NCBI GenBank assembly: GCA_963805085.1
Contig: CAWDTA010000004.1
Location: forward strand, 192,001 to 256,000
Length of the DNA: 64,000 nt
Direction of reading: 5' to 3'
DNA from: an uncultured Veillonellaceae bacterium
GTDB taxonomy: Bacteria; Bacillota; Negativicutes; JARBTT01
Numbering within the stretch: position 1 is the stretch's first letter; each line of letters begins with the position of its first letter. The translations under genes and the position numbers were made by a program. Positions 32,901 to 47,242 of the stretch are shown one piece after another. Under the pieces are notes generated by a model. That model was not told the origin of the DNA, searched no databases, and saw nothing but the letters and a program-made list of their open reading frames with translations.

Positions 32901-33563
32901 ATGAATTTATTATTGGTAGAAGATGAAGTAAAGCTAAGTGAGTCTCTGACTGTATTAATCAGCCGTGCCGGTTACACCGTTGATACTGCTTTAGATGGCT
33001 TAAAAGCTTTAGAAAAAATTAGAAATAATGAGTATGCTGTAATTATTTTAGATCGAATGTTACCTTGTTTAGATGGACTATCTGTATTACAGCAAATGCG
33101 TAAAGAAAAAAACAATACACCGGTTTTATTCTTAACGGCGAAAGATTCACCTTCGGAGCGTGTTGCTGGTCTAGAAGCTGGGGCTGACGACTACTTAATC
33201 AAACCATTCTTTACCGAAGAATTACTAGCAAGAATCAAAGTATTAATTAAACGTGTAGAAAAGAAAGCACCTGAAGGCGTTATCGAAGTCGCAGGTATCA
33301 CGTTATATACACTGCATGGCGAAGTCATCAATGGCAAAGAAAAATTCCAGCTCACAGTAAAAGAAGCAGCTTTGCTGGCACTTTTAATGAGCAATAAAGG
33401 GCAAGTCATCACCAAAGAACGTATTATGGAAAAAATTTGGGGCTATGATAGTGAAACGAATATTGCGAATGTCGATCTCTACATCTATTATTTACGAAAA
33501 AAATTAAATATATCAAATATCAAAACTATCCGTGGCATTGGTTACTGTTTTGAGGAGGAGTAA
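32901..33563 (+). CDS. OmpR family response regulator
   Basis: LLVEDE, LDRMLP, FLTAK, GADDYLIKPF, LRKKL, TIRGIGY. Confidence 0.92.
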   Translation: MNLLLVEDEVKLSESLTVLISRAGYTVDTALDGLKALEKIRNNEYAVIILDRMLPCLDGLSVLQQMRKEKNNTPVLFLTAKDSPSERVAGLEAGADDYLIKPFFTEELLARIKVLIKRVEKKAPEGVIEVAGITLYTLHGEVINGKEKFQLTVKEAALLALLMSNKGQVITKERIMEKIWGYDSETNIANVDLYIYYLRKKLNISNIKTIRGIGYCFEEE

Positions 33564-33566
33564 CTG

Positions 33567-34829
33567 ATGTTTAAAAAACTTCGCCTAAAATTAACTCTAA
33601 TCAACGTAAGCGTAATCGTAACACTATTTATTATTTTAAGCATCAGTTTATATGCCCTCTTAAGAATGAGTTCTCAACAAGGCACGATTTTTATGCTACA
33701 AAAGATAAGTGATGATGTTAAATATGACGAGAATTTTGAATTTCCTGAACATAAGAAGCCAGAAAAACCACCTAGCGATTTTACTGGCTTCATGCCACCA
33801 CCAAAACCAAATTTCTTCTTTGTAAAAGTTGCAAATAATGGAACTGTCCTTATGCATTCTACTGGTATTACGGTTACCGACTCGCAACTTCCAGAATTAA
33901 TTCATATCACAGCAGCAAAAAAATTAGATATGGACACCATTAATTTTGAAACTATTCCATTTGCTTATTTGCGAACCTATTTACCAGAGGAAAACTGCAC
34001 ACTGCTTGTATTTAACGATAAATCTGAACAAGAAGAACATATGAATCAACTGATAACCCATCTCTTACTGGTAGGTCTAGTTTGTAGCTTACTTTCATTC
34101 TTCGCAAGCTTTTTCTTAGCGAAACACACGATCAAACCAATTCAAGCTTCACTAGAACAACAAAATAATTTTGTTTCTGATGCTTCTCACGAGCTTAGAA
34201 CGCCAATTACGATCATTCAGACGAATTTAGATATCATCAAAGGTGCGCCACCTCACGAAACAATTGCGGATAATGAAAAATGGCTGAACAATATCCAAGA
34301 TGAAACCACCTGCATGACCGAACTTATTAATTCCTTATTATTCTTAGCACGGGCTGATGCCAACCAGCAGCTAATGGAAAAAGAATATTTCCCATTAAAT
34401 CCGACAATCTTGGATGCCATTCACCCTTTTGAAGTTATAGCCAAAAGAAATAATATTACACTTACGACAGATATGAATGGCCAAGTTACGGCTTTAGGAG
34501 ACTCTATTCGCCTTAAGCAGGTTCTTACGATACTGATTGACAATGCCATTCGCCATACACCAAAGCACGGTAGCGTCGTTGCTGGCTGTCATACCAAAGA
34601 TGATGCCATCTATATTACCGTTACCGATACTGGTGAAGGTATCGCGAAAGAACACCAACACAAAATCTTTGATAGATTTTATCAGGTTGACGAATCTCGC
34701 CATAAAGGCGGTTCTGGACTGGGCTTATCGATTGCCCAGTGGATTATTGAACAACATGGTGGAATGATTGGTGTGAAAAGCACCGTAGGTAAAGGTACAA
34801 CTTTTACAATCAAATTACCAACAAAATAA
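33567..34829 (+). CDS. Sensor histidine kinase (2 TM, HisKA, HATPase)
   Basis: FVSDASHELRTP, DNAIRH, DTGEG, GSGLGL; Pro-rich extracytoplasmic segment. Confidence 0.92.
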   Translation: MFKKLRLKLTLINVSVIVTLFIILSISLYALLRMSSQQGTIFMLQKISDDVKYDENFEFPEHKKPEKPPSDFTGFMPPPKPNFFFVKVANNGTVLMHSTGITVTDSQLPELIHITAAKKLDMDTINFETIPFAYLRTYLPEENCTLLVFNDKSEQEEHMNQLITHLLLVGLVCSLLSFFASFFLAKHTIKPIQASLEQQNNFVSDASHELRTPITIIQTNLDIIKGAPPHETIADNEKWLNNIQDETTCMTELINSLLFLARADANQQLMEKEYFPLNPTILDAIHPFEVIAKRNNITLTTDMNGQVTALGDSIRLKQVLTILIDNAIRHTPKHGSVVAGCHTKDDAIYITVTDTGEGIAKEHQHKIFDRFYQVDESRHKGGSGLGLSIAQWIIEQHGGMIGVKSTVGKGTTFTIKLPTK

Positions 34830-34869
34830 AATGAGAATGGACTGTAAAAAAACAGTCCATTCTCATTTT
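34829..34869. terminator. Bidirectional terminator
   Basis: AAAATGAGAATGGACTG..CAGTCCATTCTCATTTT. Confidence 0.8.
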
Positions 34870-34929
34870 ATTTTCAACTATATAATATAAAATACTGCTT
34901 GATATAAAAAGTAATCATCCATCTGGAAA

Positions 34930-35280
34930 TTAAACATTGGCATCACTTTCTTTTGTTTGACTCGTAAGTTCTACAGAGTATGCATCACCATTTTTTTAGC
35001 TAGCTTACTTGTTTCATTGGTTTTTGCTTTACTGCTAGTCGTCGAACTTGTTGAGCTTGAATTTTGCGCTTCTGCAATTTGTTCATCAATTTTCTCGACC
35101 TGCTTTTCATAATTTTTAATCGCTGCTTTATTCTTTTCTGCATCAGCTTGTTTCAATTGATTAACTTGATTTTGTAATAACATCTTTTTTTTGCTGCAAT
35201 GCAGCAATTGTAGATTGAGCATCTGATGTAGAGCCACTCGTTGCAGAACTACTCGTTGAGGAAATAGTACCAATACTCAT
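34930..35280 (-). pseudogene. FlxA-like Ser-rich/coiled-coil gene broken by two compensating poly-A frameshifts
   Basis: ATG at 35280 after GAAGGA gives MSIGTISSTSS...AALQQK; shift at A8 (35185-35192) into ..MLLQNQVNQLKQ..IDEQIAEAQ..; shift at A7 (34991-34997) into GDAYSVELTSQ..*; AYSVEL is shared with the neighbouring paralog. Confidence 0.65.
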
Positions 35281-35476
35281 ATAAATTCCTTCTAATACAT
35301 TAATTTGATAAAACACCACAATATCTACTACTAAATAACATTTTCAGCTAAAAGTCATACAATTTCTACCATTATTATCTTCTACATTTCTTTTAAAAGA
35401 GTTTGAACATAAAAAATGTTAGAGATTGTAGCCTTTAAAGGAATACGATCTCTAACATTTTTTGATTTTCTAACTA

Positions 35477-35863
35477 TTAACATACCATATATGTAATTTC
35501 ACTATCGGCCGTATACCCAAACGGGCGATAAGTAAGTTGATCATTACTTAATTCAACGCTATAAGCCGGGCCAATCATTGTAACAATTTCACTAGCTGCT
35601 GTTGACTCATAACTTTTTGACTCGGTCGCTGAAGTTACTGATTTTACTTTTGAAATCTGATTGTCGACATCTTCAATTTGCTGTTTTAACGTAGAAATCG
35701 CAGCTGTATTATCTTTATCATCACTCGCTGCTAATTGATTCATGTGCTGTTGCATGGACGCCTTCCGTTTTTTTGAAGACATCAAGAGTACTTCCTTACT
35801 GTCTGTACTATAACTCTGATACGTGCTGTAACTACTAGTAGGTGAAACACTATTAATTTTCAT
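35477..35863 (-). CDS. FlxA-like Ser-rich/coiled-coil small protein
   Basis: M.I.SVS Ser-rich N-terminus, heptad segment ISTLKQQIEDVDNQISKV, GPAYSVELS. Confidence 0.6.
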   Translation of the reverse strand: MKINSVSPTSSYSTYQSYSTDSKEVLLMSSKKRKASMQQHMNQLAASDDKDNTAAISTLKQQIEDVDNQISKVKSVTSATESKSYESTAASEIVTMIGPAYSVELSNDQLTYRPFGYTADSEITYMVC

Positions 35864-35918
35864 GTTATAGCCCGCCTTTCAATCTAAACTATTTTAAAAT
35901 CGAATACTTATAGTACTT

Positions 35919-35973
35919 ATTATGCAACTCTTTTTTTTGAAATGACTTTGATTTTCCTTTGATTATTATTTGA
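35919..35973 (-). promoter_or_regulatory. Promoter with four TCAAA(G) direct repeats (11-bp period) 10 nt upstream of CATAAT
   Basis: Minus strand TCAAAT-N5-TCAAAG-N5-TCAAAG-N5-TCAAAA-N10-CATAAT. Confidence 0.6.
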
Positions 35974-36016
35974 TTTTTAAAATCAGGAATATACTCCTTG
36001 TCTTTGATCTATACAC

Positions 36017-36171
36017 GAAAAAATCAGGGCCTATGGATAGCCCTGATTTTTTCAGAATAAGAATAATTTGGGTGTGTGTGTGATGTTGTGAGTCTTTGGA
36101 CAACCGAGGTTGTCCTGTTCTAACTTGTGTGAGTTAGAAGTGTGTGTGTGAAATAAATGAGTCAATCTACA
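36017..36171 (-). ncRNA. Candidate CA-repeat small RNA (~155 nt)
   Basis: Own promoter (36178-36221), two (CA)5C tracts, two hairpins, strong terminator at 36017-36053, no ORF or RBS. Confidence 0.6.
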
Positions 36172-36177
36172 ATTATT

Positions 36178-36221
36178 ATTATGCTATACTTTTCTTTGAA
36201 AATCCTTTGATTTTCCTTTGT
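36178..36221 (-). promoter_or_regulatory. Promoter with three (T/A)CAAAG direct repeats 10 nt upstream of CATAAT
   Basis: Minus strand ACAAAG-N5-TCAAAG-N5-TCAAAG-N10-CATAAT. Confidence 0.6.
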
Positions 36222-36309
36222 CTTTCATTTATTTGTACATTTATTTTTCTTTTTTTACATTTAAAATACTTAATTCACGCACTATGATACCATCTTATTT
36301 AAATAGTTT

Positions 36310-38247
36310 TTATTTTGCCATTAATTGCGCTATTTTGTTGGCAAAGGCAATTGGATCTTCCGGCAAGATCCCTTCGATTAATAATGCTTGTGTATAAAGT
36401 AAATCGCAATAATCCTTGAACGTATCAGAAGTCGCATCTTGATTAAAAATCGCTTGCAAACGGCCAAACAATTCATGATGTGGATTAATTTCTAAAATAC
36501 GGCGCGCTTTAAACATTGGATTGTTTGCTTCAGCAAAAACTTGTTCCATCGATAAACTAATCCCATTGTTGTCACTGACTAGGCACACTGCACTAGCTTT
36601 TAAGCGATTACTAATTTTTACATCGGCAATTTTATTATCTAAGGTTTCTTTAATTGCTTTGATTAAACTTTCATTATCTTTAGCAATCGTTTCAGCTTCT
36701 TTCTTCACTTCTTGTGCTTCTACGTCATCTAATTCTAAATCACCACGACTAACTGAATGAAATTTCTTATCGCCATATTCGCGTAATGCTTCAATCGCAA
36801 ATTCATCGACAGTATCGAATAAGTATAATACTTCAATACCTTTTTCTCGTAACAATTCCATTTGTGGTAGACGATCAATGGTTGCAGGATCTTTCCCTGT
36901 TGCATAGTAGATTGCTTTTTGGCTTTCTGGCATACGTTCTTTATATTCTTTTAAGCTTGTTAAGCTAGAACCTTCTTTCGAAGAAGCAAATAGCAACAAG
37001 TCTTTTAATTTCGCACTATCTTGTGGGTTTGTATAAACACCAATTTTAAAGGATTTACCAAATTCACCCCAGAATTTTTCGTATTTTTCACGGTCTTTAT
37101 TGAGCATTTTTTCTAGTGTTTTTAAGACATTCTTTTCAAGGTTTTTACCAATTAATTTGAGTTCACGACTTTGTTGTAATAACTCACGAGAAATATTTAA
37201 AGAGAAATCTGGTGAATCCACAAGTCCACGAACAAATCTCAAGTAATCTGGTAATAATTCTTGACATTTTTCCATGATGAATACATGACGAGAGTAAAGT
37301 TGAATACCAGCACTGTACTCTGCATGATATAAATTATATGGTGCATGCGTTGGAATGAATAAAATGGTTGTATATTCTACTGTACCTTCTGCTTTTGAAT
37401 GGATAATTTCCATTGGTTCTTCCCATTCATGGAATAGATTTTTGTAAAATTCATTATATTCTTCTGGCTTAATATCGTTTTTATTTTTTGTCCAAAGTGG
37501 CTGCATCGAATTTAATATGCGTATTTCATTGCGTTTTATTTTCTCTGCACCTTCGATTGGTTTGCCTTCTTCATCTTTTTGTTCTTCTTCAACAATAAAA
37601 TTCATTTTGATTGGAAAACGCACATAGTCTGAATACTTTTTAATTAAACTTTCTAAGGTATAAGTTTGCAAGAAGTTTTCTTCGGCCTTTTCGCCAAAGA
37701 ATTCTGGTAATAATGTCAAAATAATTGTCGTTCCACGATCAGCTTTTTCCGTTTCTTCAATGCTATAGCTGCCATCTCCAGTAGATTCCCATTTAACCCC
37801 TTTGCTTTCGCCAGCTTTACGCGTAATCAGCGTTACTTTTTCTGCTACCATGAAAGCAGAATAAAAACCAACACCAAATTGACCGATCAATTCTTTATCA
37901 GAAACCGATTCTTTTTGTTCTTTTAACTTTTCTAAGAATGATTTTGTACCCGATTTTGCAATTGTACCAACATTTTCGATAACTTCATCGTAAGTCATCC
38001 CAATCCCATTATCAGAAATTGTTAACGTATGGCTTTCCTCATCAGGAACTAAGTAAATTTCAAAATCAGATTTACCTTCTAATAATTCTTGATTGGTAAT
38101 TGATTCGAAACGAATTTTATCAATTGCATCCGATGCATTGGATACCAATTCCCGTAAAAAGATCTCACGATTCGTATAAATTGAATGAACCATTAAGTCC
38201 AATAATTGTTTCGTTTCTGCTTGAAACTCGCGCATTTCTTTTGCCAT
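36310..38247 (-). CDS. htpG: Molecular chaperone Hsp90
   Basis: FLRELVSNASDA, DNGIGMT, GTIAKSG, IGQFGVGFYSAF, LEINPHH. Confidence 0.97.
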   Translation of the reverse strand: MAKEMREFQAETKQLLDLMVHSIYTNREIFLRELVSNASDAIDKIRFESITNQELLEGKSDFEIYLVPDEESHTLTISDNGIGMTYDEVIENVGTIAKSGTKSFLEKLKEQKESVSDKELIGQFGVGFYSAFMVAEKVTLITRKAGESKGVKWESTGDGSYSIEETEKADRGTTIILTLLPEFFGEKAEENFLQTYTLESLIKKYSDYVRFPIKMNFIVEEEQKDEEGKPIEGAEKIKRNEIRILNSMQPLWTKNKNDIKPEEYNEFYKNLFHEWEEPMEIIHSKAEGTVEYTTILFIPTHAPYNLYHAEYSAGIQLYSRHVFIMEKCQELLPDYLRFVRGLVDSPDFSLNISRELLQQSRELKLIGKNLEKNVLKTLEKMLNKDREKYEKFWGEFGKSFKIGVYTNPQDSAKLKDLLLFASSKEGSSLTSLKEYKERMPESQKAIYYATGKDPATIDRLPQMELLREKGIEVLYLFDTVDEFAIEALREYGDKKFHSVSRGDLELDDVEAQEVKKEAETIAKDNESLIKAIKETLDNKIADVKISNRLKASAVCLVSDNNGISLSMEQVFAEANNPMFKARRILEINPHHELFGRLQAIFNQDATSDTFKDYCDLLYTQALLIEGILPEDPIAFANKIAQLMAK

Positions 38248-38282: not shown

Positions 38283-38309
38283 TTAGCACTCTGTGTCTGT
38301 GAGTGCTAA
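38283..38309. promoter_or_regulatory. CIRCE element (HrcA operator)
   Basis: Perfect TTAGCACTC-N9-GAGTGCTAA upstream of htpG. Confidence 0.95.
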
Positions 38310-47147: not shown

Positions 47148-47242
47148 AGAAAAATCATTTTGTTAATTTTTCTTTCCTTAATTAATGGAATAAATCAACT
47201 ACATATAAATCACACACATTTGTATTACCGCCACAAACATTA

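Follow-up and report, generated by a model that had tools for sequence, protein, structure and literature searches.

An intergenic stretch with CA-rich repeats, located downstream of the Hsp90 gene htpG of an uncultured Veillonellaceae bacterium, raises the question whether it encodes a small RNA (sRNA) and, if so, how this RNA may be switched on and how it may act. The window, namely the whole stretch of DNA that was analysed, comprises 64,000 nucleotides (contig CAWDTA010000004.1, positions 192,001 to 256,000 of the forward strand). Coordinates without a genome or contig name refer to this window, and the features of the locus are listed in Table 1. An earlier note on this DNA had proposed an sRNA on the minus strand, and this call is supported by a conserved promoter of its own, a covarying terminator, the lack of a conserved ORF, and the conservation of both sequence and synteny. 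The preferred reading, to which a probability of about one half is given, is that of an independently transcribed, trans-acting base-pairing sRNA of approximately 153 nt, activated by the OmpR-family response regulator (RR) encoded nearby.

All elements listed in the earlier note for the minus strand (GACUCA modules, two hairpins, and a terminator) were retrieved. In the first module, GACUCA (36163-36158) is followed by six nucleotides and UCACACACACAC (tract at 36150-36140). In the second one, GACUCA (36094-36089) is followed by five nucleotides and again UCACACACACAC (36082-36072), and the strand containing it reads GACUCA-N5-U(CA)5C-CCAAAUUAUUCUUAUUCU. This strand (36054-36094) was unpaired in the minimum free energy (MFE), centroid, and consensus folds. 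The terminator is preceded by the A/U-rich stretch AAAUUAUUCUUAUUCU. The MFE of the RNA amounted to -44.7 kcal/mol versus -20.7 ± 3.4 kcal/mol for shuffled sequences (z = -7.15), none of the 200 shuffles being as stable. As had been claimed, the unit is not an ORF: it contains no AUG (36018-36170, minus strand), and its sole open frame, starting from UUG, was broken in all five other homologues. The rarity of pure CA tracts in the window was confirmed to a moderate degree only. Indeed, CACACACA occurred five times versus 1.47 times expected, with four overlapping matches inside the two CA tracts and one at position 47211; as 4 out of 100 shuffles reached five matches, the CA composition is only mildly unusual. 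A permissive scan of positions 34500-37500 against Rfam 15, which covers GcvB, RsaE, and 6S, yielded 12 weak matches, none of them near the gathering score and none on the strand of the RNA within 36018-36170.

Table 1. Position and strand of the features of the htpG-RNA-two-component system locus in the window
Feature	Position	Strand	Remarks
OmpR-family response regulator (RR)	32901..33563	plus	Pfam Response_reg and Trans_reg_C; convergent with the RNA
Sensor histidine kinase (HK), partner of the RR	33567..34829	plus	Pfam HisKA and HATPase_c
Second small ORF, paralogue of orf128	34971..35280	minus	Split over two frames at an A-run
P3, degenerate third promoter copy before the second small ORF	35374..35406	minus	TCAAAC-N5-TAAAAG-N10-GATAAT
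orf128	35477..35863	minus	Small Ser/Thr-rich protein with coiled-coil-like repeats
P2, paralogous promoter of orf128	35919..35962	minus	TCAAAG-N5-TCAAAG-N5-TCAAAA-N10-CATAAT
Candidate small RNA	36018..36170	minus	Approximately 153 nt, non-coding
Intrinsic terminator	36018..36052	minus	Stem of approximately 15 bp, A-run before, U-run (six U) after
G-poor single strand	36054..36094	minus	GACUCA-CAACAU-(CA)5-CCCAAAUUAUUCUUAUUCU
Hairpin 2	36098..36115	minus	GGACAAC-[CUCG]-GUUGUCC
Hairpin 1	36118..36139	minus	8 bp, UUCUAACU-[CACACA]-AGUUAGAA, loop CACACA
5' single-stranded module 1	36140..36163	minus	GACUCA-N6-U(CA)5C
-10 hexamer CATAAT	36178..36183	minus	10 nt past the last repeat
Three hexamer repeats, putative RR site	36194..36221	minus	11-nt period
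htpG (Hsp90), upstream gene	36310..38247	minus	Pfam HSP90, E = 6e-131

Homologues were found downstream of htpG, as the earlier note had suggested to look for them, in 4 of 151 genomes of the class and on four metagenome contigs, and they are syntenic. A covariance model built from six sequences, namely the source genome (G000), three other genomes (G001, G004, and G019), and two metagenome contigs (L127 and L132), recognised the RNA in these four genomes and on all four metagenome contigs, and BLASTN or pattern searches retrieved it in 4 of 401 genomes of the class. The two further contigs are L136, on which the locus is cut off and hence incomplete, and L138, the RNA of which is identical to that of G019. 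With BLASTN, G001, a member of the same genus, is 89% identical over 421 nt. G004 is 79% identical across the promoter and the RNA body, its flanks being without alignment. In the case of G019, BLAST matches the promoter and the 5' end and the covariance model the full length. As the order of G000, as sampled, consists of G000 and G001 only, G004 and G019 lie outside this order. The gene order htpG, RNA, and, in convergent orientation, histidine kinase and OmpR-type RR was the same in the four genomes and, as far as the flanks extend, on L127, L132, and L138; the HK gene was syntenic in every homologous locus with enough flanking sequence. The RNA is the sole unit between htpG and the HK gene in G004 (gap of 348 nt) and G019 (283 nt), indicating that it is not the leader of a downstream gene.

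Several other matches were discarded. The BLASTN search over the 401 genomes gave matches in 25 genomes at E <= 0.01, those outside the four genomes mentioned above spanning 19-70 nt (the longest in L021 and L027); in eight such loci, it was mostly the A/T-rich repeats that were matched, with no -10 box at the proper distance. Matches of the covariance model in G068 and G107 were rejected, as they were not syntenic, and a weak match on contig L132 (L132:8502-8664) consists of a terminator and the last part of a coding region. A pattern scan of genome contigs returned 82 stretches. One of these (L120) is the same locus in a sister species, three (L101, L110, and L121) are treated below, and the other 78 look like chance matches, judged by the sequence around each match. 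A pattern scan of metagenomes returned 12 stretches, comprising the four homologues and eight unrelated ones.

The consensus fold of the six homologues retains hairpin 1, hairpin 2, and the terminator. Of the 35 pairs in the whole structure, seven showed changes on both sides, six of them in the terminator (6/15) and one in hairpin 1. Furthermore, 95.4% of the alignment cells pair, compared with 35-55% when the partners are slid by one to three columns, and none of 500 column shuffles reached the observed covariation score, a figure that is inflated by the kinship of the sequences. In hairpin 1, one U-A pair becomes C-G in G004 and U-G in L132. The stem of hairpin 2 is invariant and its loop varies (CUCG, UUCG, UUUA, and CUUA). 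In G019, both hairpins are replaced by a single unrelated one. Among the unpaired parts, conservation is highest at the 5' end (GUAGAnnnACnCAUUUA) and in the pre-terminator stretch CACACA(C/U)CC-A-UU-UCUUAUUC, the core of which, CACACA(C/U)CC...UCUUAUUC, is kept in all six homologues. CA runs of at least 5 nt number three in G000, L127, and L132, two in G001 and G004, and one in G019. Tract 1 is deleted in G001, a member of the same genus, and G004 and G019 lack the CACACA of the loop. Tract 2, by contrast, is always present, as (CA)5 in G000, (CA)4 in L127 and L132, and (CA)3 in G004. The three equivalent CACACA sites of a CsrB-like sponge, as envisaged in the earlier note, are thus not maintained, the pre-terminator tract being the only one kept in 6/6. 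Neither do the tracts behave as neutral microsatellites devoid of conserved hairpins, the outcome that would have spoken against a function, since the hairpins and tract 2 itself persist, the latter varying by one to two units.

The layout from promoter to terminator proposed before held for the terminator; the promoter was found too, but it is best read as three hexamers plus CATAAT rather than as a plain sigma-70 -35/-10 pair. The hexamers are ACAAAG (36221-36216), TCAAAG (36210-36205), and TCAAAG (36199-36194), all on the minus strand, and no good -35 box is present. Transcription is predicted to start at about 36171-36170, at a conserved UGUAG; this start is uncertain by approximately 3 nt, since a consensus promoter scan picks AATAAT, 3 nt downstream of CATAAT, instead. 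The two proximal hexamers are invariant and their spacing is constant in the six sequences of the covariance model; in L136, the upstream one of these two hexamers reads TCAAAT. The terminator ends approximately 160 nt past the -10 box, likewise in G001, G004, and G019. Among the 401 genomes of the class, TCAAAG-N5-TCAAAG-N11-ATAAT was found seven times versus once for the reversed control, four of the seven matches being the RNA promoter. The shorter pattern TCAAAG-N5-TCAAAG occurs twice in both G000 and G001, in both genomes at the RNA locus only, once in G004 (at the RNA), and twice in G019 (at the RNA and at one other site). In a relaxed scan of the whole G000 genome, the best three sites were the RNA promoter (P1), P2, and P3, all at the locus, and two more sites (C3:148587 and C2:2082351) tied with P3. 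The former (C3:148587-148700, plus strand) reads ACAAAG-N5-TCAAAG-N10-TACAAT and is located 78 nt upstream of a gene for a TolC-like outer-membrane protein, which may be a further member of the P1-P3 regulon.

The neighbouring two-component system is the candidate regulator of this promoter. OmpR-family regulators usually bind direct repeats one helical turn apart, and the hexamers, starting at 36221, 36210, and 36199, are direct repeats with a period of approximately 11 bp in the -35 region, as is typical of promoters dependent on this family. The RR, for which no NCBIfam equivalog reached the cut-off, is co-inherited with its HK and the RNA, its identity to that of G000 being 97% (G001), 89% (G004), and 74% (G019). 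The same promoter design occurs on a Bacillota contig (L101, 1277-1309, minus strand), directly before an RR-HK operon of which the RR is 43% identical. In the recognition-helix region, all six RRs associated with the repeats, including those of the window and L101, read LYIYYLRKK, whereas Y[IV]H[YNH]LR[KR]K is found there in six RR homologues of 50-60% identity, the flanks of which contain no such repeats. This association between helix and TCAAAG repeats is suggestive only, five of the six RRs with the motif being closely related to one another. We infer binding of the RR at the RNA promoter from its proximity, the geometry of the repeats, and a single independent case. TCAAAG repeats were absent from the promoter of the RR gene itself. 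HK homologues in other families (43-48% identity) were rejected as orthologous modules, their RRs being only 50-60% identical, and no TCAAAG repeats were found within approximately 1.5 kb of them.

Other occurrences of the repeats were observed outside the locus. On a Selenomonadales contig (L110, reverse complement, approximately position 975), the same promoter is followed by a gene for a small secreted protein. On a Selenomonadaceae metagenome contig (L121:4892-5050, plus strand), TCAAAG-N5-TCAAAG-N10-TATAAT precedes a G-poor unit of approximately 115 nt that folds into one hairpin and a strong terminator (z = -4.8). It contains no credible coding frame, the one frame of at least 70 amino acids starting upstream of the promoter, and it was not recognised by the covariance model of the htpG-linked RNA. 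This unit may represent another, second kind of sRNA with a promoter of this class. In G124 (L030; C1:1475987-1476011), a TCAAAG-N5-TCAAAG pair with no -10 box at the proper distance is located approximately 0.8 kb from a 42%-identical HK homologue of another family, and isolated repeat pairs resembling it occur in G006, G393, and G031.

Approximately 35 nt before the start of htpG, the gene upstream of the RNA, there is a perfect inverted repeat, TTAGCACTC-N9-GAGTGCTAA (38283-38309, minus strand), which we take to be a CIRCE/HrcA operator; accordingly, htpG would be a class I heat-shock gene. Between the htpG stop codon and the RNA promoter (36226-36309) no terminator-like site was found, an arrangement also seen in sRNAs of the 3'-UTR type, and the corresponding spacers of G004 and G019 are 20-40 nt long without a GC-rich hairpin. 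In G004, the hexamer repeats begin approximately 20 nt past the htpG stop codon. The RNA terminator thus probably also ends htpG transcripts.

Downstream of the RNA, the two small ORFs carry the promoters P2 and P3. The product of orf128 has no Pfam or NCBIfam match, and homologues of it were found in G001 and L127. A FlxA-like identity of orf128 (protein atlas lead, 0.91) and of orf100 was not retained, being without Pfam support (E = 0.85 or no match). In the second small ORF, the ATG frame encodes MSIGTISSTSS...LQQKKDVITKSS* and the paralogue-like C-terminal part lies in another frame; this split could be due to slippage, to an error in the assembly, or to the ORF being a pseudogene. Just before P3, orf128 ends in a strong AT-rich hairpin that carries a U-run (AAAAAAUGUUAGAGAU...AUCUCUAACAUUUUUU; 35410-35470, minus strand), and the weak Rfam matches of the miRNA or snoRNA type are due to this hairpin.

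Four other explanations of the element were weighed against a base-pairing sRNA. Its ACNCA...CACACA modules may bind a protein that is titrated when the two-component system is on, candidates being Hfq of the Gram-positive type, the distal face of which accepts alternating A-N repeats, ribosomal protein S1, or some other protein that binds CA-rich RNA. Hfq occurs in the clade. Two ACUCA...(CA)n modules and the CACACA loop are present in G000, L127, and L132, and a degenerate arrangement of two modules (ACNCA, 6-8 nt, CA-rich) is discernible in each of the six homologues; that no base-pairing targets stand out fits this explanation too. ACA- and CA-rich elements are known as protein- and ribosome-binding enhancers of translation (PMC3879156). 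Yet, sponges normally keep their repeated motif, whereas the CA runs drop here from three to two and one, and conservation is highest in non-repeated sequence, namely the 5' end and UCUUAUUC. Two or three sites also mean a low valency, and the fact that two of the three CA sites are poorly conserved weakens a protein-binding role for the CA modules. A sponge of the CsrB type is excluded by motif, because the single GGA (AGGACAACC) lies within the stem of hairpin 2. A protein-titrating RNA is judged unlikely. This applies as well to the bolder variant, held to be improbable, in which the CA repeats, instead of acting as a seed, form a tunable platform that loads the distal face of a Firmicute-type Hfq hexamer or another protein with a preference for CA-rich RNA, such as S1; if true, a single RNA would allow the two-component system to reprogramme the pool of the chaperone or of ribosomes, lineages could tune the valency by (CA)n slippage, and didermic Firmicutes would possess a sponge based on a new class of motif.

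Alternatively, the element might mainly serve htpG as a structured 3' UTR and terminator by which its mRNA is stabilised or processed, the repeats acting, for instance, as an RR roadblock or read-through silencer. The terminator-free stretch between the htpG stop codon and the element and the closeness of the repeats to htpG in G004 fit this explanation, and the CIRCE-like operator implies that read-through transcripts are to be expected under heat stress. However, both the UGUAG start region and the -10 box are conserved with exactly the same spacing, and the same promoter precedes two protein genes (P2 and P3) and other units in L101, L110, and L121; moreover, a terminator needs no long conserved single strands. 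A purely 3'-UTR role is accordingly given a low probability. The promoter could also be read by an alternative sigma factor, such as the forespore factor sigma-G, which would make the RNA a sporulation-stage sRNA. GAATT-N17-CATAATA resembles the sigma-G consensus of B. subtilis, CATAATA is conserved in three of the four genomes with a G(A/G)ATT pentamer 17 nt upstream, and Spo0A is present in G001, G004, and G019. This is less likely because the candidate -35 pentamer, located between the hexamers, varies (GGATT, GGGTT, and GAATT; GTCAT and GTAAT for P2), whereas the TCAAAG hexamers do not; in addition, three repeats with an 11-nt period are not a sigma feature, so that a sporulation sigma factor is considered very unlikely. 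Lastly, the element could be a spacer without function, in which the CA tracts are neutral microsatellites and the hairpins arose by chance, consistent with the differences of one to two units in CA tract 2 among the homologues and with the modest excess of CACACACA in the window. This is barely credible in view of an element that is conserved beyond the order of G000 while adjacent spacer DNA does not align, with a covarying terminator and a conserved promoter.

With a base-pairing sRNA as the preferred reading, the following mechanism is proposed. The phosphorylated RR, encoded approximately 1.2 kb away in the convergent RR-HK operon, would bind the three hexamers and activate the RNA, and the same RR would co-activate the two small ORFs that carry copies of the RNA promoter. 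The sequence of the RNA is probably also the 3' UTR of the heat-inducible htpG mRNA, with a shared terminator, because no terminator separates the two. The RNA would base-pair via the conserved G-free strand CACACA(C/U)CC...UCUUAUUC adjoining the terminator, with CACACACCC and UCUUAUUC as candidate pairing stretches. Hfq possibly assists; its gene was found in G001, G004, and G019, and not in the 83% complete assembly of G000. Target prediction, one of the checks named in the earlier note, gave nothing above shuffled controls: an RNAduplex scan of approximately 11,650 crude translation-start regions reached -27 kcal/mol at best, compared with -27 to -29 kcal/mol for three shuffled seeds. Likewise, no perfect 9-nt complement of the core occurred at a credible start codon. 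The suggestion that the CA sequences are a seed for GU-rich targets is conceivable for the one universally kept tract, but complementary sites are not enriched; the genome has 43 (UG)>=4 sites, including two that are antisense to the RNA, and these do not cluster at start codons. Duplexes with the start regions of the local RR, HK, and htpG genes involve only implausible long-range pairings, and a 16-bp complement (one G-U pair) to the 5' tract, 76 nt upstream of an AgrC-like kinase gene (C2:1044521-1044545, plus strand), is at chance level (BLAST E = 2.7), and this tract is missing in G001; these candidates were rejected.

Among known systems, the csRNA/CiaRH pair of streptococci is the closest design, and its working logic appears to be the same. 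The csRNAs are 51-202 nt long and contain an unpaired region between stem-loops as well as an intrinsic terminator (PMC3091779). Their promoters contain a direct hexamer repeat, N5 apart and ending 10 nt before the -10 box, that is bound by the OmpR-family regulator CiaR and reads NTTAAG-N5-TTTAAG, the third base of the hexamer being an invariable T (PMC3091779). The hexamer-N5-hexamer-N10-(-10) spacing is identical to that of the RNA promoter described here, in which the distance from the repeat to the -10 box is likewise 10 nt, with a terminator no more than 250 nt further on. The hexamers differ, (A/T)CAAAG-N5-TCAAAG having A as third base unlike the CiaR repeat, and so do the recognition helices, NVDLYIYYLRKKL in the window RR versus VVEVYVSKVRKKL in CiaR (PMC3091779). 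Also in contrast with the csRNAs, the RNA contains no CCUCC-type anti-Shine-Dalgarno sequence, only CCC/UCC beside the CA tract, and it is present in one copy per genome, fixed beside htpG and the two-component system, in a host belonging to the Negativicutes. A CAU triplet, a possible anti-AUG, occurs in 6/6 homologues.

Other two-component-dependent RNAs share single features. OmrA/OmrB, which depend on OmpR, and other such sRNAs of Proteobacteria act by base-pairing with a conserved single-stranded seed and have an Hfq-type 3' end. The RNA resembles them in its inferred OmpR-family drive, its conserved single strand, and its A/U-rich stretch plus terminator, but it shows no sequence or Rfam similarity, and its candidate seed is CA/C-rich and adjoins the terminator. 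RoxS/RsaE, a Firmicute sRNA under control of ResDE/SrrAB, pairs with G-rich ribosome-binding sites through C-rich unpaired motifs; these motifs (CCCC/UCCC) differ from the (CA)n-CCC of the RNA, which has another synteny and no Rfam match. Sponges such as CsrB, RsmY, RsmZ, and CrcZ carry 6-22 GGA or A-rich motifs conserved as a set, often under two-component control. The RNA is also non-coding with repeated short single-stranded motifs, but it differs from CsrB and the Rsm RNAs in lacking multiple GGA motifs and in conserving one of its three CA sites only; CsrA is encoded in the G000 genome. Finally, 3'-UTR sRNAs of the DapZ/MicL type have their own promoter and share the terminator of the upstream gene, whereas the RNA promoter is located after the htpG stop codon instead of inside the coding sequence.

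A full-text literature search returned no sRNA described in Selenomonadales or the wider Negativicutes, although supplementary files could hold lists of unnamed sRNAs. The RNA is rated as a new sRNA family of a known kind, namely that of the two-component-controlled sRNAs. The locus represents a compact signal-to-RNA module, consisting of a sensor kinase, its regulator, a near-unique promoter motif, one sRNA, and sometimes two small proteins, and since the motif is near-unique, the regulon is directly testable. It further indicates that a promoter design of the csRNA type recurs outside the streptococci with a different hexamer. The combination of promoter motif and terminator offers a recipe for finding further such sRNAs, one of which the L121 unit looks like. 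The position of the RNA behind a CIRCE-controlled htpG gene suggests that the heat-shock response is connected with envelope stress or another stress that is sensed.
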